A DNA stretch of 64,000 nucleotides from Oscillospiraceae bacterium (GTDB lineage Bacteria; Bacillota; Clostridia; Oscillospirales; CAG-272). Both the position numbers and the translations under genes were made by a program. The stretch covers positions 1,050 through 65,049 of the forward strand of contig SVQI01000009.1 in the NCBI GenBank assembly GCA_015065455.1. The letters run 5' to 3'. Under the pieces are notes generated by a model. The model searched no databases. It was not told where the DNA came from and saw nothing but the letters and a program-made list of their open reading frames with translations. Shown one piece after another: positions 1,725-53,893 of the stretch; position 1 is the stretch's first letter, and every line of letters begins with the position of its first letter.

Positions 1725-2759
1725 ATGCAGACACTTTTAATAAAAGAAGCAAACAAAGAGAATATAGATATAGCGGCAGATATAATTAAAAACGGCGGTC
1801 TTGTGGTTATGCCGACAGAAACCGTATACGGACTTGGAGCCAACGCCCTTGACAAAAATGCCGTTACAAACGTGTACAAAGCAAAAGGTCGCCCTATGGA
1901 CAACCCATTGATAGTACACCTTTCAACAGCAAACGATGCAGAAAAGTACGCTTATACAAACGAACTTTTCTACAAGCTTGCAGACAGATTCATGCCGGGG
2001 CCTTTGACGGTCATTCTCCCAAAAAAAGATATAGTTCCCTACGAAGTATCGTGCGGACTTGATACGGTCGCAATTCGCGTACCGTCAAACGAAATTGCTC
2101 ACAGACTGATAGAAACCTCAGGCTGCCCGATAGCCGCTCCTTCGGCAAACCTTTCGGGCAAACCGAGTCCGACAAGCTTTGCGCACGTTGTTGAAGACAT
2201 GAACGGCAGAGTTGATGCAATAATTGACGGCGGCGAATGTGATATAGGTCTTGAGTCAACCGTTATAATAATAAAAGACGAAAGTGCCGAGATTCTACGT
2301 CCCGGAAAAATAACATACGAGGAATTGAAAGAAATAATTCCCGATATAAAAATAAACTCGGCTGTAAAAAACCAATGCACAGACGAAAAGGTTGCAAGTC
2401 CGGGTATGAAATACAGACACTATGCCCCCTCAGCCCCCGTTTTTCTGGTCGAGGGAAATGACAATGATATTATAAACTTTTTTAAAACCAAACAACAGAC
2501 AGAAAACTGCGGCATTCTTTGTTTTAGCGAAGACGAAGAATTACTGCTTTCCAAAAACGTTCTTACGTTTGGAAGAAGCGATGACGAAACTTCTCAGGCG
2601 CACGAGCTTTTTGACAAGCTCCGCCGTTTTGATAATATGAACGTTGAAAGAATATACGCAAGAATTCCCTCGGATAAGGGCGTGGGTCTTGCAGTATATA
2701 ACAGACTTATACGTGCGGCAGGCTTTGACATAATCAAAGCAAATAATATACAGGAGTGA
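1725..2759 (+). CDS. tsaC: L-threonylcarbamoyladenylate synthase (Sua5/YwlC/TsaC type with C-terminal Sua5 domain)
   Basis: 344 aa. YrdC-fold motifs PTETVYGLGANA, KGRP.DNPLIVH, SANLSGKPSPT. Confidence 0.92.
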   Translation: MQTLLIKEANKENIDIAADIIKNGGLVVMPTETVYGLGANALDKNAVTNVYKAKGRPMDNPLIVHLSTANDAEKYAYTNELFYKLADRFMPGPLTVILPKKDIVPYEVSCGLDTVAIRVPSNEIAHRLIETSGCPIAAPSANLSGKPSPTSFAHVVEDMNGRVDAIIDGGECDIGLESTVIIIKDESAEILRPGKITYEELKEIIPDIKINSAVKNQCTDEKVASPGMKYRHYAPSAPVFLVEGNDNDIINFFKTKQQTENCGILCFSEDEELLLSKNVLTFGRSDDETSQAHELFDKLRRFDNMNVERIYARIPSDKGVGLAVYNRLIRAAGFDIIKANNIQE

Positions 2760-12321: not shown

Positions 12322-12354
12322 AAAAAACACCGCAGATTAAATAATCTGCGGTGT
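12322..12354 (-). terminator. rho-independent terminator (minus strand) after micro-ORF 1
   Basis: Hairpin acaccgcagatt-aaat-aatctgcggtgt with a T-run on the minus strand. Confidence 0.8.
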
Positions 12355-12382
12355 TCATATTTGCTATATTTCTAAAACCTTA

Positions 12383-12493
12383 TTATACATTATCCATAGG
12401 CATGGGCGGCATTTCGGGATCGCTCATTGTAATAATGTCTTTTTCTTCGAAGTTAATTACTTCTACTTTAGGTTCTTCAAAAATCATCTTCAT
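12383..12493 (-). CDS. conserved 36-aa micro-ORF downstream of the 1021-aa surface protein (not in the ORF track)
   Basis: AGGAGG sits 10 nt before the ATG. Translation MKMIFEEPKVEVINFEEKDIITMSDPEMPPMPMDNV. A paralogous copy lies at 15840..15950, with synonymous differences between the two. Confidence 0.6.
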   Translation of the reverse strand: MKMIFEEPKVEVINFEEKDIITMSDPEMPPMPMDNV

Positions 12494-12532
12494 GTTATCT
12501 ATTCCTCCTATCATATTATCGATAACAACATC

Positions 12533-15500
12533 TTACGCGATTGCGCTAGCTGCTGTAAAGTAATCGTACAAGGCATAAACAACATTCTTTGCTGTTTCAT
12601 AACCAGTCTGCTGTGATACTGTGTAAGCGTAGTTAAATACACTATAGTTTACAGTTACGTCGCCAACTGTTGTTACGATTGTCTTATCGAAGTCCTGAGG
12701 AAGAATGTCAGCTTCTTCAACATAGTATCCTAAATGGTTCTGTCCATCGAAGATTGTTGTGTCAGCACCGTCAGCTACTGTGAAGTAGTGTCTGATTGCA
12801 ACCTTGTCAAAGAGAACGATTGTTGAGTACTTATATGTGTAATCTGCTGATGCTCCGGGAACAACGCTTGCTCCTGTTGCATATGTTGCAAGTTCATTCT
12901 TTCTTTCAGCCTGAACAACTGTTGTGCTGTCGATCTTTCCGAAGTGCAACTGTGATAATTCACCATAGTTAAGAACTGCTTCTGCTATATCTGCATATTC
13001 AGGATTTTCTGTAGCCATCTGTTCAGCGTATGCTTCAAATGTTGTTGTGTATGTTCTTGTTTCAACACCATCTACAACAAGCTTAACGCTTACGTCAGTA
13101 GTCATTTCTGTTGCAAACAATTCAGCGCTAATCTTAACGATGTTGTTTGCATCAACCATAGCTGCAGTAACAACTGTTTCGTAAGTCTCATCACCTATTG
13201 TAAGAACATACTTAACTTTGCCTGCTGCAATAGCACTCTTTGTCAAGTCTGTTACTTTGTAATCGATGTTAAGAATTACATTGTTTTCAAGAGTACCGCT
13301 AACTACGTCAACTTCGCCGTAGGGGAATATTTCTACAACTTCATTTGCTGTAAATTCAGCATCGATCTTTGCAGGATCAATTGTTCCGTATGCATAGTAA
13401 ACAACCTTAGATGCGGGAGCTTCTGCAGATGTGTTACGTGTAGACTTGTATGTAATCTTGCCTACTGTACCACCCTGAAGGTTTATTGCCAAGTTACCGA
13501 TGCTGTCATAGTAACCTGCACCTGTAATAGCAATGATTTCGTCTACTGAACCACTCTTAACTGTGATAGAAACGTCGCCTTCAACGTATGAGTACTGTCT
13601 GTTCGCCTTAGGTGATACACCTGTTGCTTTAATCTTTTCAACATTAGCACCGTCGATAACGATTGTAGAATTACCGATAAGAGATGCACTCTTTGATGTG
13701 CTTACAGAGTGACCTGCACCTACGATATATCTCCAGCTACCTGCTTTAACTGTAATAACGGGATCTGCTTCGAGTTCTGCATCAAGACCGTTACGTGTTG
13801 TAGCAAAGATATTGGGGTATCTAGTACCTGCAACAGGAGAACCTGATGCATAGTTGTACGATGTTACGTTAACGTCATCTTCTACTGTAATGTTGTTTCC
13901 GTTAGCGTAGAATGAGAAGTTTGTAACGTACTGTTCACCTGAGTTGTTGCTGTTGTATCTGAACTCGATTGTGGTAGCATCAAATGTTGTGTCTCCACCG
14001 AGCCAGAGAGATGTTGAATCCCAAACGGAGTGATCCAAAACGAATGTTCCGCCTGTGATTTTTACTGCGCCTGTTTCAGGAAGCTTGAAGTCGCCTGCAT
14101 ACTTTCTTTCAAAAGCATCTGCGGCGTCAATAACCAATTCATCAACGATAACGATCTTACCGCCTTCAGCGCCGAGCTGTTCAAGTGCTCTGTACAAAGG
14201 ATGTGCTTTCGCAAGAGCATTGTTTGCAAATACCATCTTGCCTACGCTTACGTTTTCCTTCATCCAAGCAATAACGTCAGCGTATGCAGCATTTTCAAAC
14301 GTTGTACGTATTGTTGTACTACCGTTTGTAACTGTGTCGGTTACTGTACCGGGGCCCAAAGGACTTTCAGCAGAAGAACCGTCGCCTGTACCTGTTGAAG
14401 ATACGTAAATAACACCGGTTTCTATAATTTCATTAGCTGTAAATTCAGCTGCGATCTTTGCAAGGTCAATTGTTCCGTCTTTGTAGTAAATAACCTTAGA
14501 TGCGGGAGCTTCTGCAGATGTGTTACGTGTAGACTTGTATGTAATCTTGCCTACTGTACCACCCTGAAGGTTTATTGCCAAGTTACCGATGCTGTCATAG
14601 TAACCTGCACCTGTAATAGCAATGATTTCGTCTACTGAACCACTCTTAACTGTGATAGAAACGTCGCCTTCAACGTATGAGTACTGTCTGTTCGCCTTAG
14701 GTGATACACCTGTTGCTTTAATCTTTTCAACATTAGCACCGTCGATAACGATTGTAGAATTACCGATAAGAGATGCACTCTTTGATGTGCTTACAGAGTG
14801 ACCTGCACCTACGATATATCTCCAGCTACCTGCTTTAACTGTAATAACGGGATCTGCTTCGAGTTCTGCATCAAGACCGTTACGTGTTGTAGCAAAGATA
14901 TTGGGGTATCTAGTACCTGCAACAGGAGAACCTGATGCATAGTTGTACGATGTTACGTTAACGTCATCTTCTACTGTAATGTTGTTTCCGTTAGCGTAGA
15001 ATGAGAAGTTTGTAACGTACTGTTCACCTGAGTTGTTGCTGTTGTATCTGAACTCGATTGTGGTAGCATCAAATGTTGTGTCTCCACCGAGCCAGAGAGA
15101 TGTTGAATCCCAAACGGAGTGATCCAAAACGAATGTTCCACCTGTGATTGTTACTGCGCCTGTTTCAGGAAGCTTGAAGTCGCCTGCATACTTTCTTTCA
15201 AAAGCATCTGCTGCGTCGATAACCAATTCATCAACGATAACAATCCTACCGCCTTCAGCGCCGAGCTGTTCAAGCGCTCTGTACAAAGGATGTGCTTTCG
15301 CAAGAGCATTGTTTGCAAATACCATCTTGCCCACGCTTACGTTTTCCTTCATCCAAGCAATAACATCAGCGTATGCAGCATTTTCAAACGTTGTACGTGT
15401 TGTTGTACTACCGTTTGTAACTGTGTCGGTTACTGTACCGGGGCCCAAAGGACTCTGAGCAGAGGAACCGTCGCCTGTACCTGTTGATGATACGTAAATA

Positions 15501-15598
15501 ACATTTGTTTCATTAGCAGAAGCAAACATTACTGTACATGACACGATTACTGCAACGAGCAATAATGCAGGTACAAGAAATTTCATGAATTTTCTCAT
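12533..15598 (-). CDS. secreted repeat-containing surface protein, predicted beta-helix-like, with an internal 363-aa tandem duplication
   Basis: 1021 aa. Signal peptide MRKFMKFLVPALLLVAVIVSCTVMFASA. Two near-identical 363-aa modules plus a C-terminal domain of about 260 aa shared with 15989..18034. Confidence 0.85.
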   Translation of the reverse strand: MRKFMKFLVPALLLVAVIVSCTVMFASANETNVIYVSSTGTGDGSSAQSPLGPGTVTDTVTNGSTTTRTTFENAAYADVIAWMKENVSVGKMVFANNALAKAHPLYRALEQLGAEGGRIVIVDELVIDAADAFERKYAGDFKLPETGAVTITGGTFVLDHSVWDSTSLWLGGDTTFDATTIEFRYNSNNSGEQYVTNFSFYANGNNITVEDDVNVTSYNYASGSPVAGTRYPNIFATTRNGLDAELEADPVITVKAGSWRYIVGAGHSVSTSKSASLIGNSTIVIDGANVEKIKATGVSPKANRQYSYVEGDVSITVKSGSVDEIIAITGAGYYDSIGNLAINLQGGTVGKITYKSTRNTSAEAPASKVIYYKDGTIDLAKIAAEFTANEIIETGVIYVSSTGTGDGSSAESPLGPGTVTDTVTNGSTTIRTTFENAAYADVIAWMKENVSVGKMVFANNALAKAHPLYRALEQLGAEGGKIVIVDELVIDAADAFERKYAGDFKLPETGAVKITGGTFVLDHSVWDSTSLWLGGDTTFDATTIEFRYNSNNSGEQYVTNFSFYANGNNITVEDDVNVTSYNYASGSPVAGTRYPNIFATTRNGLDAELEADPVITVKAGSWRYIVGAGHSVSTSKSASLIGNSTIVIDGANVEKIKATGVSPKANRQYSYVEGDVSITVKSGSVDEIIAITGAGYYDSIGNLAINLQGGTVGKITYKSTRNTSAEAPASKVVYYAYGTIDPAKIDAEFTANEVVEIFPYGEVDVVSGTLENNVILNIDYKVTDLTKSAIAAGKVKYVLTIGDETYETVVTAAMVDANNIVKISAELFATEMTTDVSVKLVVDGVETRTYTTTFEAYAEQMATENPEYADIAEAVLNYGELSQLHFGKIDSTTVVQAERKNELATYATGASVVPGASADYTYKYSTIVLFDKVAIRHYFTVADGADTTIFDGQNHLGYYVEEADILPQDFDKTIVTTVGDVTVNYSVFNYAYTVSQQTGYETAKNVVYALYDYFTAASAIA
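13325..15502. repeat. in-frame tandem duplication, 2 x 1,089 bp
   Basis: Units are about 13325..14413 and 14414..15502. Long runs of DNA are identical at an offset of 1089 (for example 13403 vs 14492). The mirrored antisense track ORFs 14030..14398 and 15119..15487 also differ by exactly 1089. Confidence 0.95.
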
Positions 15599-15672: not shown

Positions 15673-15701
15673 ATAATATCACACTGATACCTAATTGTCA
15701 A
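15673..15701 (-). promoter_or_regulatory. candidate promoter of 12533..15598
   Basis: On the minus strand: TTGACA, 17 nt, TG-a-TATTAT. Confidence 0.55.
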
Positions 15702-15780
15702 CAGCAAAATTAACATATTATTTCACATTTTTTTAATAGTTTTTCACAAACTAAGAAATATAGAACAAAAAGTTAAACTA

Positions 15781-15815
15781 AAAAAACACCGCAGCTTATT
15801 TAAATCTGTGGTGTT
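15781..15815 (-). terminator. rho-independent terminator after micro-ORF 2
   Basis: Hairpin caccgcag...ctgtggtg flanked by an A-run and a T-run, so it may act in both directions. Confidence 0.7.
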
Positions 15816-15839
15816 TTATTGTTTTGTTTTTTACCTTAT

Positions 15840-15950
15840 TATACAACATCTATTCCCATGGGCGGCATTTCAGGATCGCTCATTGTGATAATGTCTTTTT
15901 CTTCGAAGTTAATTACTTCTACTTTAGGTTCTTCAAAACTCATCTTCATC
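15840..15950 (-). CDS. conserved 36-aa micro-ORF downstream of the 681-aa surface protein (not in the ORF track)
   Basis: AGGAGG sits 10 nt before the ATG. Translation MKMSFEEPKVEVINFEEKDIITMSDPEMPPMGIDVV. Paralog of 12383..12493. Confidence 0.6.
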
Positions 15951-15988
15951 TCTTCTACTCCTCCTATCGTATTATCTATAACAACTTC

Positions 15989-18034
15989 TTACACAAGCGC
16001 GTCGGCTGCTTTATAATAATCATACAAAGCATAAACGATGTTCTTTGTAGTTGTAAACTTTTCCGATGTCTGTTGAGACACTAAATAAGCATAATTCATT
16101 ACGCTGTATTTTACTGTACATCCGTCAACCTCAACGGTCTGTGCATCAGCATATTCCTGAGGAAGAATATCGCTGATTTCGATATAATATCCTTTATCGT
16201 TATAACCGTCAAACATCGACGTATCCGCACCTTCTACTATACCGAAGTAATGTCTGATCGCGATCTTATCAAAAAGAACAAGTGACGAATAATTATACGT
16301 GTACTGTGTTGAAGCTCCACTGACAGATGCGCCTGTTTCGTACGCTGTAAGCTCGGTTTTTCTTTCAGGTTGATTTACCGTTGTGCTATTGATCGTTCCA
16401 AAGTGGAACTGTGACATTTGTCCATATTTAAGCACTGCCGCCGCTACTTCCGCATACTCAGGATTATCAAGTGCCATCTGCTCTGCGTACGCTTCAAACG
16501 TTGTTGTGTAAGTATCACATTCAACTTCACCAACATACAACGTACCGCTGACTTCAGCAGTCATTTCCGTACCGTAAAGAGTTGCCGGGAATCTGACGAC
16601 GTTATTTGCATCAATCATTTCTGCAGTAATTATATATTCCTCTTGAACTCTGTTACCAACCGCAAATGCATATTTAACAGTCTTTCCTGCCGCAATAGCA
16701 TCCTTTGTCGCCTGTGTAACTTTAAAATCAAGGTTAAGCTCAACGTTATTATTAAGTGTGCCGCTGACCATATCAACTTCACCGTAGATATTCTTTACGT
16801 TTACAGCTGTGAAGTTTCCACTGATCTCGGGAGCATTTTGAGCTTTTGTTACGTAGCACGTAACAACCGAAGACGTAGGTTCATATACACTTCCGTTTGT
16901 TGTGTTCTTGTAAACAATTTCACCGATCGTTGCAGTTTCGTGTGTGTTTATTGTCAACGTGCCGACAATACCTGCAGACGTTACTCCGTAAATTGAGCCG
17001 ATTGTACCGCCCGTAACGTTTACAGTTGCATTACCGTTAAGAATACTAAAATGTATAGGGTTCAGTTTTGAGCCTTGGTATGCAGAGGTTTTACCCGAGC
17101 ACCACAATTTTTCAATCGTACCGCCTGTAACGTTAATCGTTGCATTACCTCTGAGGTCTGCATCATAGGATGAACTACTAGAATATATACTATGTCCTGC
17201 CGCAGATACGTCAGTCCAATGTCCCGACTTAATGGTAATAATCGGATTTCCTGTTATTGCTGTATATTTAATTGACGTAGCATAGATAGAGGGGTATTCA
17301 TTACCCTCGACGCGATTTCCGGAAACGTAATCAAACGACGTTACGTCAACACCCTCGCCTATTGTAAGGTTGTGTCCGCCTGCAAGGAACGAAAAGTGAT
17401 GCGTCATAGTAGAACGGCTATAATTTGCATTATTACTAATGTGGATACCTGAATTATATCTGTTTTCTATGCCGATATTCTGAATTGTCGTATCACCGCT
17501 GAACTGAATATGAGTAGAGTTGTAAACAGTATGGTCCAAAATAAGCTTAGAATTTGCATTGTAACCTTCGATTACGATAGGTCCGGCAGAAGGAGTAATC
17601 ATCTTGCCTTCATATCCAATCTCGAAAGTAACAGCCGCATCAAGAGCGAGCTCGCCAACAACAACCACCTTACCACCTTCAGCTCCAAGCCGTTGAATAG
17701 CTTTATACAAAGGATGAGCTTTTGTGAGCGCGTTGTTTGCAAATTTAACAGTCGTAATCTTTCTTATATCATCACTCTTCAACCAGGTGATAACACTTTC
17801 GTACGATGCGTTGGAAAAACTCTTTGTTTTACTGGAATTGCTGGAATTCTTGTACGAAACAGAATCCGTCACCGTGCCAGGTCCCATAGGACTCTGAGCC
17901 GAAGAACCGTCGCCCGTACCGCTTTGCGATATGTAAATAACGTCAGTTTCAGCAGAAGCAAACATTACTGTGCATGACACAATCACTGCAATCAGCACCA
18001 AAGAAGGAATAAGAAACTTTATGAATTTTTTCAT
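15989..18034 (-). CDS. secreted surface protein, single-module paralog of 12533..15598
   Basis: 681 aa. Near-identical signal peptide (MKKFIKFLIPSLVLIAVIVSCTVMFASA). Shares the GDGSSAQSP motif, the HPLY.A...LGAEGG motif and a conserved C-terminal domain (TTTFEAYAEQMA..NPEYA, YALYDY). Confidence 0.85.
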   Translation of the reverse strand: MKKFIKFLIPSLVLIAVIVSCTVMFASAETDVIYISQSGTGDGSSAQSPMGPGTVTDSVSYKNSSNSSKTKSFSNASYESVITWLKSDDIRKITTVKFANNALTKAHPLYKAIQRLGAEGGKVVVVGELALDAAVTFEIGYEGKMITPSAGPIVIEGYNANSKLILDHTVYNSTHIQFSGDTTIQNIGIENRYNSGIHISNNANYSRSTMTHHFSFLAGGHNLTIGEGVDVTSFDYVSGNRVEGNEYPSIYATSIKYTAITGNPIITIKSGHWTDVSAAGHSIYSSSSSYDADLRGNATINVTGGTIEKLWCSGKTSAYQGSKLNPIHFSILNGNATVNVTGGTIGSIYGVTSAGIVGTLTINTHETATIGEIVYKNTTNGSVYEPTSSVVTCYVTKAQNAPEISGNFTAVNVKNIYGEVDMVSGTLNNNVELNLDFKVTQATKDAIAAGKTVKYAFAVGNRVQEEYIITAEMIDANNVVRFPATLYGTEMTAEVSGTLYVGEVECDTYTTTFEAYAEQMALDNPEYAEVAAAVLKYGQMSQFHFGTINSTTVNQPERKTELTAYETGASVSGASTQYTYNYSSLVLFDKIAIRHYFGIVEGADTSMFDGYNDKGYYIEISDILPQEYADAQTVEVDGCTVKYSVMNYAYLVSQQTSEKFTTTKNIVYALYDYYKAADALV

Positions 18035-18103: not shown

Positions 18104-18132
18104 AATATAACACACTTATTTGCATTTATCAA
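18104..18132 (-). promoter_or_regulatory. candidate promoter of 15989..18034
   Basis: On the minus strand: TTGATA, 17 nt, TG-t-TATATT. The position is homologous to the promoter at 15673..15701. Confidence 0.5.
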
Positions 18133-50249: not shown

Positions 50250-52091
50250 TTAGTGTTTTGAAGCCTTTTCGTTTTCGTATTTTTTTGCCTGAATCTTAAA
50301 CATTTCGGCATACTTTCCGTTTTTATTTATAAGCTCCTCGTGATTTCCTTCTTCTATTATCTTTCCGTTGTCAAACATATATATTCTGTCTGCCATACGT
50401 GTTGTGGAAAGTCTATGAGATATAAATATTACAGTCTTATCTTTTGTTTTTTCTGTTATAGCCTGATTCAATTTATACTCTGCAATTGGGTCAAGTGCGC
50501 TCGACGGTTCATCAAGTATCATAAGATCGCATTTCTTTGCAAATACTCTTGCAATAGCAATCTTCTGCTGTTCTCCGCCCGAAAGCTCCGTTCCTTCTTT
50601 GCTGTATTCTTTTGTAAGAATTGTATCAAGTCCGTTTTTGAGCTTTTGTTCAATCGGGAAGTCTGCAATTTCCAGAGCTTCCTTGGCTGTCATATAGTCA
50701 GACTCATTTTCCACCGTATCACCAAGCACATTTTCGGCAACGGTTGCCGCAAACAGCTTGTGATCCTGAAATACTGCACCTATCTTATTCCTGTACGAAG
50801 AAAGATCATATTCCTTTATATCTGTTCCATTATATAAAACAACACCTGATGTAACGTCATACAAACGCATAATAACCTTTATCAATGTTGTTTTACCCGC
50901 GCCGTTGTATCCTACAAAGGCAATTTTTTCGCCCTTGTTTATTTTAAGGTTCACGTTATCAATAACGTCATCTTCACCGTTATATGAGAATTTTACGTCT
51001 ACAAGTTCAAGACTCTCAAAGTCGTTTGCCGGTATAATTCCCGACACGACCTTAGGCTCGTAGTTGAGGAACTTTTTAAACTTTTCAACATAAAGGCTAT
51101 GCTCGTTAAATCTTGTTACAAAATACGTTATGCTTGTCAGTCTGTCATAAAGGTTGAATACAGCCGTTACGCCTACCGAAAATGACCCTAACGATACGTT
51201 TGGGTTTACAACATACTGAACCACAAGATATCCCATAACGCCAAACTCGAGAAGCTTATTTGTAAGTAACGAAGAAACAACGTTCAGAGGCACAATTTTC
51301 TTTGCAAATCTTTTAATCAGAGATACCTTGCTTTCTAAAACAGCAGTATACTCCTCTTCAAGATGCTCACTTATATTACCCTGTCTGATTTCTTTTGCAT
51401 ACTCGGCAAGGTAAAATACCCTCTTAATATAGTCGCCTTTTCTTATTATCTTTTGGTTTTCCTGCTGTTTAGCATAATTTATCTTATTTCTGAGCATACC
51501 AAACAAAAGATTTACAACGGATACCGTACAACAAATAAGGGCAACAAGCTTATCCATTGACCACAATATTGAAAGCACTCCAACGCTGGACAATATTCCG
51601 GCTAAAAAGTTCTCAAAATCTATCATCATCGACCATACACGGCCGTCAGACTCTCTTATCGCCCACACAAAATCATTATAGAACTCGGGATTGTCATAAC
51701 AGCTTTGGTCAAGAGAACGGGCTTTCATATAAAGTTCGCCCTGCATTCCCTCCTGAAGCTTGAGTTGTATGCGATAAATATAGACGTTCCAGAACCATTT
51801 GTTCAAAATGTTAACGACCACTATCAAAAGCGCAAATACACCTGTAACAATAGCTATTTCTTTAAATGCTTTTCCTGTTTCAATTGCATCAAATATATAT
51901 TTAATGTATACTATCGACGATAAAACCTGCCAGACTGCATTTGTTGTTGCCACAAAAACAGTAATCCAGAAAAACATCGGGGTATACTTAAAGACATATT
52001 TAAACATAAAAGCGGTATTTTTTACCGTAAGAAATATGTTGCTTTTTTCTTTTTTGGGGGTATTAAGCTTCTTACTTCTTTTAAAAATCAT
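50250..52091 (-). CDS. ABC exporter, fused permease/ATP-binding subunit (type 1 exporter half-transporter)
   Basis: 613 aa. Six-TM N-terminal domain, Walker A GYNGAGKTT, signature LSGGEQQKIAIAR, Walker B LMILDEPSSALD. Confidence 0.92.
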   Translation of the reverse strand: MIFKRSKKLNTPKKEKSNIFLTVKNTAFMFKYVFKYTPMFFWITVFVATTNAVWQVLSSIVYIKYIFDAIETGKAFKEIAIVTGVFALLIVVVNILNKWFWNVYIYRIQLKLQEGMQGELYMKARSLDQSCYDNPEFYNDFVWAIRESDGRVWSMMIDFENFLAGILSSVGVLSILWSMDKLVALICCTVSVVNLLFGMLRNKINYAKQQENQKIIRKGDYIKRVFYLAEYAKEIRQGNISEHLEEEYTAVLESKVSLIKRFAKKIVPLNVVSSLLTNKLLEFGVMGYLVVQYVVNPNVSLGSFSVGVTAVFNLYDRLTSITYFVTRFNEHSLYVEKFKKFLNYEPKVVSGIIPANDFESLELVDVKFSYNGEDDVIDNVNLKINKGEKIAFVGYNGAGKTTLIKVIMRLYDVTSGVVLYNGTDIKEYDLSSYRNKIGAVFQDHKLFAATVAENVLGDTVENESDYMTAKEALEIADFPIEQKLKNGLDTILTKEYSKEGTELSGGEQQKIAIARVFAKKCDLMILDEPSSALDPIAEYKLNQAITEKTKDKTVIFISHRLSTTRMADRIYMFDNGKIIEEGNHEELINKNGKYAEMFKIQAKKYENEKASKH

Positions 52092-53893
52092 AATTGCCCC
52101 TCGCTTTCAACATACTTCTCTGCCTGCATATGCCACATATCAGCATACTTACCATTTAAAGCAAGGAGCTGGTCGTGTGTGCCTTTTTCTATTACCTTTC
52201 CGTTTTCCATCATATAAACCATGTCTGCCATTCGCGCCGCGGACAGACGGTGTGATATGTATATGGCAATCTTACCCTCGCTCACCTCAAACATATTTTT
52301 ATACATTTTATCTTCAGCAATAGGGTCAAGAGCACTTGAAGGCTCGTCAAGTATAATTATAGGCGGGTCCATAGCAAACAGCCTTGCAAACGCAAGCTTT
52401 TGCGCTTCTCCCCCCGACAAAACTTCGCCGTGTGAATCAAATTCCTTTGTAAGTATTGAATCAATGCCTTTTTCGGTGTTTGCTATTCTATCGTAAACGT
52501 CGCTTCTTTTTAATGAATCCTCAACGATACGTCTGTCTTCGTCACACGTTACCTTGCGCAGAAGTACGTTTTCCGTAACGGGTAATGAAAACATTTTATA
52601 ATCCTGAAACACCGTACCGAAAGAGCTTCTGTATGCGGATAAACGATAATCCTTTATATTTTTTCCGTCAAGCAAAATTTCCCCATCATCTACGTCATAC
52701 ATACGGAGCAACAGCTTTACAAGGGTAGTTTTTCCTGCGCCGTTGTGCCCCACAATAGCAATCTTTTCGCCCTTTCTGGCACATATATTAACGTTATCAA
52801 CAACCTTCTTGTTGTTATACGAAAATGATACGTTTTTAAACTCAAGAACTTCGGGGGAATTTGGAATAAGACCGTTTTCATTTTCCGGTATTTTTATTTC
52901 ATACTCTATAAAACGACGGTAATTATCAATATATTTTGAGTTTTCGTCCATTCTTATAAGCGTATGACTTGCCCAAGCAAAGCTGCCCGAAAGATTTGTT
53001 ATTGAATTTATTACCACAAAACAGTCGCCTAACGGTAAAACAAATTTTACAAGCGCCAAAAATGACGCTAACAAAATTGAACCGCAGTATACTACTATCT
53101 CGCTTATAAATTGAGCAAAACATTCAAACCACATAAGCTTATAGCCGTACGTTTTTGCTATATTGTCAAGCTCCTTTATGTTTTCTTTCATCTGAGAGAG
53201 CATAACTCTGTACATATTAGTAAGGCGCATTTCTTTTGAATAGTCTGATAAATAAAAACTGCGTCTTACATAATTTGCACGTCTTGACGTTTCCATTCTC
53301 TTCATATTTCTTTCAAATGAAATATTATTCTTCTTTTTCCCGACAAGCAAATTATAAGCAAACGGAATTAGAGCCATAATTATAAATACGGGATGAATGG
53401 TTACAATAAGCGTAACCATTGAAACAACGTTGACAATAGACCATATTCCGTGGTCAAGATGCCACATTATATATTGAGCCTGTTTTGACTGTTCTATTGC
53501 CTTAGAATAGGCATCGTAGAAATCAGGATCGTCAAAACAAGCAAGCTCAACACTTGCCGCTTTTTTCAGCATCTCTTTTTGCAGAAAAGACTCTATCTGC
53601 GCACTCTTTTTAAGATGATATTGTTCGGCAATCTCATCAAAAATCATATATGCAACCGATATAATAAACATAGTTACTATATAAGTCAAAACGTCTTTCA
53701 AGCCTCCACCCGACTGAATGGTATTGAGAACGTATTTGTACATATACGTAAAAGAGAAAAAATTGCAAAGACTTCCCGCAATTGATCTGAAAATCTCAAT
53801 TCCTACGTATGTTTTTGAGAAATTGGCAATCAGCTTAAGCATAAACCAGTTATTACTGATCGTTTTTCTCAGATTTTTCTTTTTGTCTGTCAT
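52088..53893 (-). CDS. ABC exporter, fused permease/ATP-binding subunit (heterodimer partner)
   Basis: 601 aa. Walker A GHNGAGKTT, signature LSGGEAQKLAFAR, Walker B IIILDEPSSALD. Overlaps the downstream gene by 4 nt. Confidence 0.92.
   Translation of the reverse strand: MTDKKKNLRKTISNNWFMLKLIANFSKTYVGIEIFRSIAGSLCNFFSFTYMYKYVLNTIQSGGGLKDVLTYIVTMFIISVAYMIFDEIAEQYHLKKSAQIESFLQKEMLKKAASVELACFDDPDFYDAYSKAIEQSKQAQYIMWHLDHGIWSIVNVVSMVTLIVTIHPVFIIMALIPFAYNLLVGKKKNNISFERNMKRMETSRRANYVRRSFYLSDYSKEMRLTNMYRVMLSQMKENIKELDNIAKTYGYKLMWFECFAQFISEIVVYCGSILLASFLALVKFVLPLGDCFVVINSITNLSGSFAWASHTLIRMDENSKYIDNYRRFIEYEIKIPENENGLIPNSPEVLEFKNVSFSYNNKKVVDNVNICARKGEKIAIVGHNGAGKTTLVKLLLRMYDVDDGEILLDGKNIKDYRLSAYRSSFGTVFQDYKMFSLPVTENVLLRKVTCDEDRRIVEDSLKRSDVYDRIANTEKGIDSILTKEFDSHGEVLSGGEAQKLAFARLFAMDPPIIILDEPSSALDPIAEDKMYKNMFEVSEGKIAIYISHRLSAARMADMVYMMENGKVIEKGTHDQLLALNGKYADMWHMQAEKYVESEGQL

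Follow-up and report, generated by a model that had tools for sequence, protein, structure and literature searches.

Two neighbouring genes of the window (the whole 64-kb stretch of DNA analysed here) encode large proteins with signal peptides, and each is followed by an open reading frame of only 36 codons. This raises the question of whether these micro-ORFs (A and B, Table 1) are genes at all and, if so, in what process their products take part. In both copies the sequence agrees with the initial annotation, which described a micro-ORF 39 nt past the stop codon of the large gene (12533-15598 for gene A, 15989-18034 for gene B) and an AGGAGG site 10 nt ahead of its start. It was also right in placing a terminator downstream, as each micro-ORF is followed by a hairpin with a T-run; the hairpin behind micro-ORF B lies below the criteria of a strict terminator scan and was recognised by sequence reading and folding. 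The coordinates that it gave for copy B, 15840-15950, were off by one (actual 15839-15949). Both large genes are preceded by promoter-like sites, and as no comparable site lies before the micro-ORF, the sequence makes it likely that each shares a transcript with the surface-protein gene ahead of it. The micro-ORFs are real genes, each read from its own ribosome-binding site into a very acidic cytoplasmic peptide of 36 residues. The peptide of copy A consists of a conserved leader-like part (residues ~1-24) and a tail, DPEMPPMPMDNV; both translations are free of Cys, as had been noted before, and of a GG site.

Table 1. Features of the two surface-protein units in the window
Feature	Position	Strand	Details
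Micro-ORF A	12383..12493	minus	36 codons + TAA, second TAA next; translation MKMIFEEPKVEVINFEEKDIITMSDPEMPPMPMDNV
Shine-Dalgarno site of micro-ORF A	12504..12509	minus	AGGAGG, 10 nt ahead of ATG at 12493
Intrinsic terminator of the gene A/micro-ORF A unit	12325..12356	minus	hairpin + T-run; folding z = -7.6
Large gene A	12533..15598	minus	1021 aa; signal peptide + two ~363-aa passenger domains + CTD
Promoter-like site upstream of gene A	15673..15701	minus	TTGACA, 17 nt spacer, TATTAT, with TG
Micro-ORF B	15839..15949	minus	36 codons + stop; translation MKMSFEEPKVEVINFEEKDIITMSDPEMPPMGIDVV
Shine-Dalgarno site of micro-ORF B	15960..15965	minus	AGGAGG, 10 nt ahead of ATG
Terminator hairpin 3' of micro-ORF B	15775..15818	minus	imperfect stem + T-run; folding z = -3.6
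Large gene B	15989..18034	minus	681 aa; signal peptide + one passenger domain + same CTD
Promoter-like site upstream of gene B	18104..18132	minus	

The window peptides belong to a Clostridial family of well over 150 relatives, which was recovered by an exhaustive HMMER search combined with a degenerate-DNA scan. Of 1.84 billion proteins the former matched 35 at E < 1e-3, with few exceptions 29-61 residues long, and the latter yielded at least 120 genomic loci. Members are frequent in Ruminococcus, Oscillospiraceae and Lachnospiraceae of the rumen and the human gut; carriers include Ruminococcus flavefaciens ND2009 and YAD2003, Porcipelethomonas ammoniilytica and Anaerotaenia torta DSM 100431. 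Almost all members show the N-terminal pattern M-K-x-x-[YF]-x-x-P-x-[VLMI]-E-[VI]-[IV]-x-F-x3-D-[VI]-I-T-x-S in an ORF of 30-60 residues; the first 24 residues are conserved, the tail (median 13 residues) is hypervariable and acidic, and the median net charge is -7. Both window peptides display this combination of ORF size, N-terminal pattern and own Shine-Dalgarno site. Neither Pfam nor NCBIfam holds a model for the family, and scans with both returned nothing for the window peptides or for either large protein; in public databases the relatives are labelled just "hypothetical protein", and full-text literature searches for the strings DVITTS/DIITTS and ELPFVP or for TIGR04463 brought up nothing relevant. 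In a word-indexed protein search a 43-residue form of the peptide retrieved just two near-identical entries, and the whole 681-residue gene B protein six relatives.

The two window copies differ in codons 5-31 solely by att/atc and ccc/cct, synonymous changes that the initial annotation had listed correctly. Agreement between A and B alone is weak evidence for coding, because a related locus (L004) is a recombinant between the two copies, which indicates that gene conversion occurs here. The proposal that the micro-ORF is translated and joins a conserved body to a variable C-terminus is nevertheless borne out from outside the window. Against the diverged allele L001, pS is 0.46 versus a pN of 0.058, and in orthologous modules the peptide is kept although the large protein is only 34% identical, with the ORF, the Shine-Dalgarno site and the PEMP tail motif all retained. 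The reading frame is conserved among homologues: 127 of the 129 DNA-pattern matches listed from other genomes lie in ORFs of 30-70 residues, with the start codon 5-10 codons before the Pro, and a strong Shine-Dalgarno motif is found in 89 of 114 family ORFs. Metagenome gene callers also call the micro-ORF, and the strain of the window is represented by metagenome contigs of 100-200 kb. Public RNA data yielded a single 164-nt metatranscriptome contig, which lies inside gene A only; none was found over the window micro-ORFs, no matching run was found for copy B, and the micro-ORF of one relative (L039) is covered by a few contigs whose source runs are only guessed to be RNA. Because both micro-ORFs lie in frame behind a single TAA, stop-codon readthrough from the large gene was considered; it was rejected, since the gaps in the family are not multiples of three and two of the orthologous modules (L218 and L219) hold further in-frame stops.

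The family is linked to a particular kind of neighbour. In most cases the gene ahead of the peptide encodes a signal-peptide protein with an unannotated C-terminal domain (CTD) of ~210 residues at its end, which is common to these proteins and to the products of genes A and B, so that the window micro-ORFs occupy the typical position. In gene A, whose passenger domains arose as a 1089-nt tandem duplication, the CTD covers about residues 757-1021 (12536-13330) and is matched by the CTD HMM with E = 3e-48 at residues 817-1017. The characteristic ending (...YS.{2}SY.Y.VL...L.N..KALY.Y..AA..Y) is present in the window proteins as ...VNYSVFNYAYTVSQQ...AKNVVYALYDYFTAASAIA. Seen from the peptide, 82 of 127 copies begin no more than 110 nt downstream of a gene on the same strand, and the CTD forms the end of 52 of these 82 genes; a second, unrelated class of C-termini also precedes family peptides. 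Seen from the CTD, the peptide directly follows 40 of 75 genes, and about 45% are without it. Truncated remnants of the peptide occur at two loci (L162 and L188), and copies have been gained and lost. PDB sequence searches with profiles of the CTD and the peptide and with a PqqD-type recognition protein (RRE) from a family locus returned no relative, and an AlphaFold2 model of the CTD with natural spacer and peptide, run without an alignment, was unusable (pLDDT 43.6). The CTD gave no matches as a DNA reference or through exact 8-mer peptide patterns in a genome scan; for the metagenome scan a 14-row subset of its alignment was used, the 44-row alignment being too diverse for scanning.

Contextual analysis of the remaining neighbours uncovered a set of enzymes. 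A Pfam survey of the immediate downstream genes showed no recurrent family, and the set emerged only from all-against-all clustering of all neighbours. Downstream of the peptide, about 20% of family loci carry a gene for a lipoprotein "stalk" with the C-terminus ...IELPFVPxx and then the genes K (HprK-like kinase), B (PqqD-type RRE), S (SipW-like signal peptidase), D (MsbA-like exporter) and N (NTP_transf_5 nucleotidyltransferase). These genes recur in 21 of the 120 loci listed, and the full K-B-S-D-N order is found in eight (L040, L044, L051, L079, L093, L101, L128 and L132). The RREs match PqqD (E = 1e-11 to 1e-14) and the nucleotidyltransferases NTP_transf_5 (E = 1e-36 to 1e-44), and the exporter combines ABC_membrane with ABC_tran; the assignments of the kinase (HprK-related, E = 1e-3 to 1e-5) and of the peptidase (archaeal-type signal peptidase I, E ~ 1e-6 to 3e-7) come from matches below the curated cut-offs. 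In three clusters (L021, L024 and L068) the same peptide is accompanied by enzymes alone, with no CTD gene. An HMM built solely from peptides adjacent to such clusters scores micro-ORF A at 27.6 bits and micro-ORF B at 29.5 bits, against 11.8 bits for the best of 2000 shuffles. Orphan copies predominate in the family: of the 76 peptides for which 2.5 kb or more of downstream sequence is available, just 17 have a kinase nearby. The window conforms to this: tblastn with the family K, B, S, D and N proteins found no homologue of the kinase, RRE, peptidase or nucleotidyltransferase in its 64 kb, the sole matches being generic ABC exporters at 50250-53893. The earlier statement that no modifying enzyme is encoded nearby thus holds for the window but not for the family, and since family loci carry modifying enzymes, their lack in the window is no argument against a precursor role.

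The accessory genes and their order are those of the lppA-K-B-S-D-N cluster for linear polyphosphorylated peptides (LPP) of Paenibacillus alginolyticus and other Bacilli (Popov et al., Nat Commun 2026, PMC13381572). In that system the leader motif YxxPxVLxHQxIxFET|xxS is associated with RRE-dependent SpI cleavage and Ser polyphosphorylation, the Tyr hydroxyl of the leader is a determinant of RRE binding, the phosphorylated residue is Ser3 after the F-E-T cleavage motif, and the biological role is stated by the authors to be unknown (PMC13381572). The experimentally validated LppS matches 16 cluster ORFs at 1e-12 to 1e-9, and LppB gives no BLAST match to the family RREs. A few SpI-RRE pairs from Clostridia appear in the supplement of the same study, their precursors given as "ND" (PMC13381572); one of these, SCH01704.1 (uncultured Ruminococcus), has matches of 1e-33 to 1e-26 to the family peptidases. 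LppA and the family peptides are both small precursors in which a conserved N-terminus is joined to a hypervariable C-terminus, a description that extends to the window peptides, and both start with M-K-x-x-Y-x-x-P-E and hold an F-E-T block. However, the Bacilli LppA sequences have no more than two short blocks in common with the family and are not detected by its HMM. The spacing from Pro to Phe is 7 in the family and 10 in LppA, making the leader three residues shorter; the F-E-x block is followed by D-[VI]-I-T-x-S, with a conserved Ser at +7 rather than +3; and the tails are acidic with 8-30 residues, as opposed to 45 basic or Gly-rich residues in LppA. Also unlike the lpp cluster, most family copies are orphans at the end of surface-protein operons, complete family clusters add the stalk gene ending in ELPFVP, and the window copies have Phe in place of Tyr and no adjacent enzyme genes in the 64 kb.

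Other peptide systems share individual traits with the family. Lasso peptide precursors have a YxxPxL leader motif (PMC10368454), resembling the YxxPx[L/V/I/M] near the N-terminus of the family, and the family RREs match lasso-type PqqD (B1) models. However, no macrolactam cyclase or B2 cysteine protease was found among the recurrent neighbours or in the window, and the family tails are too short and as a rule lack the Gly1...Asp/Glu7-9 ring pattern. In the prochlorosins, scattered ProcA precursors are served by one enzyme, ProcM, and there too a genome holds many precursors with one leader and diverse cores, most of them far from the modifying enzyme; the chemistry differs, and the orphan copies of the present family are tied to a specific kind of neighbour gene. 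PapR is an exported pro-peptide with the C-terminal pheromone end ADLPFEF, and the resemblance is limited to a short [DE]-[LM]-P-[F/P]-x motif, acidic and at or close to the C-terminus; the micro-ORF has no Sec signal peptide, and no RRNPP-type regulator was noticed among the neighbour genes.

The match of the cluster genes and their order to the lpp cluster suggests that the window copies are best read as orphan RiPP-type precursors of an LPP-like class, one per surface-protein paralog and served in trans, a reading that we regard as somewhat more likely than not. Their maturation would then probably depend on enzymes encoded elsewhere, on the assumption of a trans-acting cluster. The conserved N-terminus of the family carries a [Y/W]xxPx[LVI]-type motif of the kind bound by PqqD-like recognition proteins. 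In the window this motif is F-E-E-P-K-V, with the Pro and the hydrophobic residue present and Phe rather than Tyr or Trp as the aromatic; in the family sets that were not picked by DNA pattern, the aromatic position is Y in 72% and F in 28%, and the Pro is found in 77%. Against this reading stand the Phe, the lack of the enzymes in the 64 kb, the small overlap with Bacilli LppA, the negative LppB search and the sub-cut-off matches of the kinase and the peptidase. In addition, in the window segment F-E-E-K-D-I-I-T-M-S the F-E-x block is present without the pattern of F-E-T followed by x-x-S: Glu (FEE-K) stands at the position of the cleavage-site Thr, and the conserved Ser is 7 residues past the block, not 3. 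By analogy with the lpp system, the RRE would hold the leader, the kinase would phosphorylate the conserved Ser (Ser24 in the window peptides), the peptidase would take off the leader, and the exporter might release a short acidic phosphopeptide with an E-[LM]-P motif (PEMPP in the window). The initial annotation had offered a chaperone-like or assembly factor, a signalling peptide or a precursor peptide as possible functions; the RRE-type leader motif of the family and the enzyme sets beside relatives favour the last, and the first is weakened by the points that follow.

The chief competitor is that the peptide acts unmodified in the cell as a dedicated partner of the surface protein, either as an export chaperone or anti-folding factor for the CTD or as a feedback regulator of the operon. 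This would account for the tight linkage seen from both the peptide and the CTD side, for the many copies without adjacent enzymes and for the strong acidity. However, the large proteins have Sec signal peptides and hence cross the membrane unfolded; the many CTD genes without a peptide, the truncated remnants, the second class of C-termini and the enzyme-only clusters also count against it, and a hypervariable tail is hard to square with binding to a conserved domain. We therefore consider such a partnership rather unlikely. Considerably less probable still is a precursor for another RiPP chemistry (thioether or cyclophane peptides of the radical SAM/SPASM kind) or an exported pheromone of the double-glycine type. 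Two loci (L033 and L135) do combine the same leader with Cys-rich cores beside TIGR04463-type rSAM/SPASM maturases and C39-peptidase ABC transporters, L068 includes a radical SAM gene, and in L021 four tandem peptides are flanked by a GHKL kinase and a LytTR regulator. Nevertheless, radical SAM linkage is rare (3 of the 120 loci listed), and the Cys-rich, rSAM-associated arrangement is confined to L033 and L135, the window peptides having neither Cys nor a GG site; no rSAM gene was found in the window, and no C39-peptidase ABC transporter was found there by tblastn with the family proteins or among the 25 listed of 63 Pfam families matched by the larger ORFs of the window.

The remaining alternatives deny the window peptides a function. 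They could be passengers that were duplicated along with the 3' end of the surface gene and kept alike by gene conversion, as the similarity of the two modules peaks at the micro-ORF region (86% over 196 nt, versus 71% further into the gene), the recombination in L004 lies inside the ORF, family copies come and go, and the window is devoid of the enzymes. This appears improbable in view of the purifying selection in the diverged allele and the retention of ORF, Shine-Dalgarno site and PEMP tail next to a large protein of 34% identity; moreover, decaying family copies acquire stops, of which both window copies are free. The location between stop codon and terminator and the near identity of the two copies in DNA might instead point to a 3' UTR RNA element or a part of the terminator, with the open frame being incidental. 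That explanation is already contradicted and can scarcely be maintained: there is no significant structure inside the micro-ORFs (folding z = -0.4 and -1.5) and no Rfam match for the region, synonymous sites are saturated across the family (median pS 0.84) with the peptide sequence kept, more than 100 loci preserve start and stop codons as well as the Shine-Dalgarno site, and a 6-nt indel in one relative is in-frame.

Taken together with the precursor reading, the recurring E-L-P-hydrophobic motif raises a wider and quite tentative possibility, which we would not rate as likely: the CTD, the (phospho)peptide after its export and the lipoprotein stalk with its ELPFVP tail might form an unrecognised Clostridial surface-display system in which this motif is the ligand or donor strand for the CTD. 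The motif would be shown either at the tip of a disordered stalk tethered to the membrane or on a phosphorylated peptide that is exported by way of its leader and perhaps coupled to a wall polymer by the nucleotidyltransferase, and in both cases the motif would hold or release the protein at the cell surface. Homologues of the same passenger domain bear a sortase signal, which such a system would replace; if true, LPP-type RiPPs would gain a function in the anchoring of surface proteins.

Considering the lack of Pfam and NCBIfam models, the "hypothetical protein" names and the "ND" precursors, a large Clostridial branch of LPP-like precursors appears to have gone undescribed. These precursors are repeatedly linked via the CTD to large variable surface proteins (BspA-type LRR, PARCEL/DUF285 and Listeria-Bacteroides repeats), and also to a lipoprotein whose terminal motif recurs in the peptide tails. 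Micro-ORFs found 3' of such surface-protein genes thus merit annotation and should not be discarded. Their place at the end of operons for cell-surface proteins offers a first clue to the role of a class of phosphorylated secreted peptides, which may serve the anchoring or display of surface proteins in gut commensals.

Both micro-ORFs reported in the initial annotation behind the large genes A (12533-15598; 1021 aa) and B (15989-18034; 681 aa) exist, and the feature as a whole is real and was correctly spotted, with only the position of copy B having been off by one. The start of each ORF 39 nt past the stop of its large gene is borne out, as are the upstream AGGAGG, which is spaced exactly 10 nt from the ATG in both copies, and the restriction of changes in the conserved stretch to synonymous ones (two sites in codons 5-31). 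A hairpin and T-run lie 3' of both copies (folding z = -7.6 for A and -3.6 for B), and promoter-like sites occur upstream of each large gene and not before the micro-ORFs; therefore, the unit in both modules is promoter, large gene, micro-ORF and terminator. Folding inside the micro-ORFs is not unusual (z = -0.4 and -1.5), and the region has no Rfam match. Each shares the frame of its large gene, from which a single TAA and 13 sense codons separate it (12494-12535; 15950-15991). Stop-codon readthrough was rejected, since two more distant modules (L218, L219) have more in-frame stops and the lengths of the corresponding gaps in the family are not divisible by three; the shared frame looks incidental. 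The surroundings are unremarkable chromosomal DNA (40% GC) of a spore-forming Firmicute, with genes for a liv ABC transporter, GTP-type PEPCK, ksgA, a tRNA, queH, spoIIGA, spoIIR, gyrase and RNase J.

Coordinates of the micro-ORFs, their remnants and features of related loci
Feature	Locus	Position	Strand	Remark
Micro-ORF copy A, MKMIFEEPKVEVINFEEKDIITMSDPEMPPMPMDNV	window	12383-12493	minus	translation read from sequence
Micro-ORF copy B, MKMSFEEPKVEVINFEEKDIITMSDPEMPPMGIDVV	window	15839-15949	minus	translation read from sequence
Adjacent ABC exporter genes	window	50250-53893	minus	two genes
Micro-ORF remnant MEKKYT, then stop	L162	about 2190-2210		behind CTD gene
Micro-ORF remnant MDKEKYERAPLEIFRFQTELIKG, then stop	L188	about 1748-1820		behind CTD gene
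ELPFVP-tailed lipoprotein (stalk)	L040	177-629
Stalk	L051	2854-3360
Stalk	L079	4228-4695
Stalk	L093	4872-5357
Stalk	L184	2214-2795
Stalk	19 others
Second C-terminus type	L046, L056, L060, L067, L083, L091, L098, L102, L077			upstream gene ends
Cys-rich cores	L033	3052-4679
Cys-rich cores	L135	880-6957
Four tandem family peptides	L021	66-5928
540-aa ORF	L043	2427-4049

The two micro-ORFs belong to a family of small acidic peptides. A peptide profile searched against 1.84 billion proteins gave 35 matches at E < 1e-3, nearly all of 29-61 aa, and a degenerate DNA pattern (P-x-[VILMF]-E-[VI]-[IV]-x-F-x3-D-[IV]-[IV]-T-x-S), scanned over one genome per species, found at least 120 loci, almost all in Clostridia. 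Carriers among the matches listed are Ruminococcus (including R. flavefaciens isolates), Oscillospiraceae, Lachnospiraceae, Acutalibacteraceae, Porcipelethomonas and Anaerotaenia, with several of the listed genomes having more than one copy; 127 of the 129 listed pattern matches lie in a 30-70 aa ORF whose Met precedes the Pro by 5-10 codons. A strong Shine-Dalgarno motif precedes 89 of 114 loci and a terminator-like hairpin follows about half. The peptides have a median length of 38 aa and a median net charge of -7, and are conserved over the first ~24 residues, followed by hypervariable G/D/E/P-rich tails (median 13 aa). In sets assembled independently of the DNA pattern, Y (72%) or F (28%) fills the aromatic position, P, E and F are kept in 77%, 88% and 88%, and only one peptide lacks the D-[VI]-I-T-x-S block. 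No Pfam or NCBIfam model covers these peptides, their public entries read 'hypothetical protein', and the motif strings retrieved nothing from literature full text.

Copies A and B are not independent witnesses for coding. The two modules are most alike in the 196 nt surrounding the micro-ORF (86%, vs 71% deeper in the gene), and on a metagenome contig (L004, 1-565) the 3' end of gene B and the start of a B-type micro-ORF are joined to an A-type tail and A-type downstream flank, which reads as evidence of recombination or gene conversion within the micro-ORF. The excess of synonymous change initially noted in this pair extends to a diverged allele (L001-L003, MNKNFEEPKVEVINIEEKDVITMSDPEMPPMPMDNV), where pS is 0.46 vs a pN of 0.058 with copy A as reference. 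The synteny proposed as a check is likewise upheld by L218 and L219, in which peptide, Shine-Dalgarno site and terminator are all kept: the L219 peptide, MNRMNFEEPIIEVIKFSENDIITMSIIPEMPGENDSLN, follows a protein of 697 aa that has just 34% identity to the 681-aa protein of the window, the signal peptide and C-terminal domain being in common, and the L218 peptide includes NKLKFEEPIIEVITFSEDDIITMSDRIPEMPPVDII, with a convergent liv operon adjoining as in the window. The allele and the two modules settle that the micro-ORF exceeds chance or gene conversion. Across the family synonymous sites are saturated (median pS 0.84) and the peptide is kept, a comparison that is partly circular as the DNA pattern fixes codon positions 1-2. 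RNA evidence is thin: contigs over the window micro-ORFs were not found, and those spanning the gene end and entire micro-ORF of a relative (L039), which show a 6-nt deletion that keeps the frame as well as a different in-frame tail, come from runs only guessed to be RNA. The micro-ORF is a translated-looking, selected gene of this family.

A same-strand gene lies within 110 nt ahead of the peptide in 82 of 127 cases, and encodes a protein with a signal peptide and variable passengers (BspA-type LRR_5, DUF285/PARCEL, Listeria-Bacteroides repeats, GLUG, Big_2, dockerin). An unannotated C-terminal domain (CTD) of ~210 aa, always at the extreme C-terminus, ends 52 of these 82 proteins and is present in the large proteins of the window (E = 3e-48). 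It is built from two repeats in which a beta region precedes a helix, with the helix motifs Y.YSV..YA...LV.AML.YG..AQ.YF and YS..SY.Y.VL...L.N..KALY.Y..AA..Y; a PDB sequence search found no relative. In a search of metagenome contigs started from the CTD, independently of the peptide, a peptide directly follows 40 of 75 CTD genes, the remainder running straight into a terminator. A few of these have truncated micro-ORF remnants (L162, L188), showing ongoing loss. The CTD-peptide link is frequent, not obligatory. A smaller group of peptides is preceded by a second, beta-hairpin-like C-terminus unrelated to the CTD (..YARAYxIxKxxxGxExxIYS..); the association of the peptide is therefore not with one partner domain alone. 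Gene A has a 1089-nt internal tandem duplication (13330-14718; copies ~96% alike over 300 nt) that doubles a passenger domain of ~363 aa, and the same paralog has 864, 732 or 387+682 aa in other strains. Homologs of this passenger domain (P0005, L012 5001-7448; P0006, L013 5001-6284) end in a sortase sorting signal (I/TPQTG, membrane span, KKR) with a terminator directly after and no micro-ORF, which suggests that the CTD module may be an alternative way for the protein to be retained on the cell surface.

Genes immediately downstream of the peptides have no common Pfam family. All-against-all clustering of all 676 neighbouring ORFs gave recurrent families, which follow the peptide in 21 of 120 loci among the matches listed. 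The full order (L040, L044, L051, L079, L093, L101, L128, L132) is CTD protein, family peptide, stalk (130-230 aa), a ~250-aa protein with weak HprK-kinase matches, a PqqD-type recognition protein (RRE) of 85-92 aa (lasso-type PqqD models; E = 1e-11 to 1e-14), a protein of 140-160 aa matching signal peptidase I (archaeal type)/SipW (E ~ 1e-6 to 3e-7, short of the curated cut-off), an MsbA-like ABC exporter of ~560 aa and an NTP_transf_5 nucleotidyltransferase of ~385 aa (E = 1e-36 to 1e-44). The stalk combines a lipobox or membrane anchor with a long disordered region rich in T/S/E/D/P, and its extreme C-terminus is (I/L)ELP(F/I/L)(V/I)Pxx; of 3412 ORFs, 24 of at least 60 aa have the ELP-motif ending, and all 24 are stalk-type. 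Their genes lie between micro-ORF and kinase gene or directly behind the CTD gene, where in L184 the stalk replaces the peptide. Neither family models nor literature gave a match to these proteins, and none is present in the window. Many peptide tails have a weaker ELP-type motif (NELPII, DLPPMGI, ELPFVPAE; PEMPPM[PG] in the window).

In L033 and L135, rare within the family, the same leader stands on Cys-rich cores beside TIGR04463-type rSAM/SPASM maturases and C39-peptidase ABC transporters, with an HprK-like gene in both and an RRE gene in L135. In L021 the four tandem peptides have a GHKL sensor kinase and a LytTR response regulator to one side and HprK-like, SpI-like and NTP_transf_5 genes to the other, an arrangement that hints at peptide-dependent regulation. 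The L043 ORF has a SipW-like signal peptidase match over ~140 aa and clusters with ABC exporters, and may be a peptidase-exporter fusion. The two ABC exporter genes of the window, with no other cluster genes beside them, are ~30% identical to the MsbA-like exporter, a match that looks generic.

The enzyme set and order are the same as in clusters for linear polyphosphorylated peptides (lpp), in which kinase, RRE, SpI-like peptidase, MsbA-like exporter and NTP transferase follow the precursor LppA; LppB, the RRE, binds its leader YxxPxVLxHQxIxFET|xxS, LppK polyphosphorylates core Ser3 and the SipW-like LppS takes off the leader (PMC13381572). The main text of that paper makes no mention of Clostridia, surface proteins or lipoproteins, and its supplement names, in minor clusters, a few SpI-RRE pairs from Clostridia whose precursors are given as 'ND' (PMC13381572). 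Using sequences from this supplement, LppS matches 16 SipW-like ORFs of the family loci (1e-12 to 1e-9), and the Ruminococcus SpI listed there matches such ORFs at 1e-33 to 1e-26. LppB gave no BLAST match in the family loci, and Bacilli LppA has only the M-K-x-x-Y-x-x-P-E and [VI]-x-F-E-T blocks in common with the family, at a different spacing. Because LppS matches, LppB does not and LppA offers only these two blocks, the family is a distinct branch of the lpp kind of system, not a plain member.

We consider it reasonably probable that the window micro-ORFs are precursor peptides. By analogy with lpp, their leader would be bound by an RRE encoded elsewhere, Ser24 would be phosphorylated, the leader cut off and a short, acidic, PEMPP-containing peptide exported. 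An HMM built from cluster-adjacent peptides only scores them at 27.6 (A) and 29.5 (B) bits, vs 11.8 for the best of 2000 shuffles. Against this stand Phe at the aromatic position instead of the Tyr of the lpp leader, Glu at the putative cleavage position, a block spacing unlike that of LppA, and the lack of cluster enzymes in the window: in agreement with the initial annotation, kinase, RRE, SpI and NTP_transf_5 homologs were not found within its 64 kb. A kinase lies within 2.5 kb of only 17 of the 76 family peptides with enough downstream sequence, and of 6 of the 25 behind a CTD gene; therefore, orphan copies like these two are the norm. Linkage to CTD proteins and the make-up of the enzyme cluster carried by relatives are direct observations. 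An unlikely alternative is that the peptide stays unmodified in the cell as a partner of the CTD protein. That the window copies are functionless passengers is more doubtful still, and all other explanations together merit very little weight.

The unexpected part is the systematic coupling of precursors and an ELPFVP-tailed lipoprotein to a CTD common to variable surface proteins. The biological role of linear polyphosphorylated peptides is stated to be unknown (PMC13381572), and the coupling of precursor, stalk and CTD yields a hypothesis on what peptides of this class do that can be put to the test.
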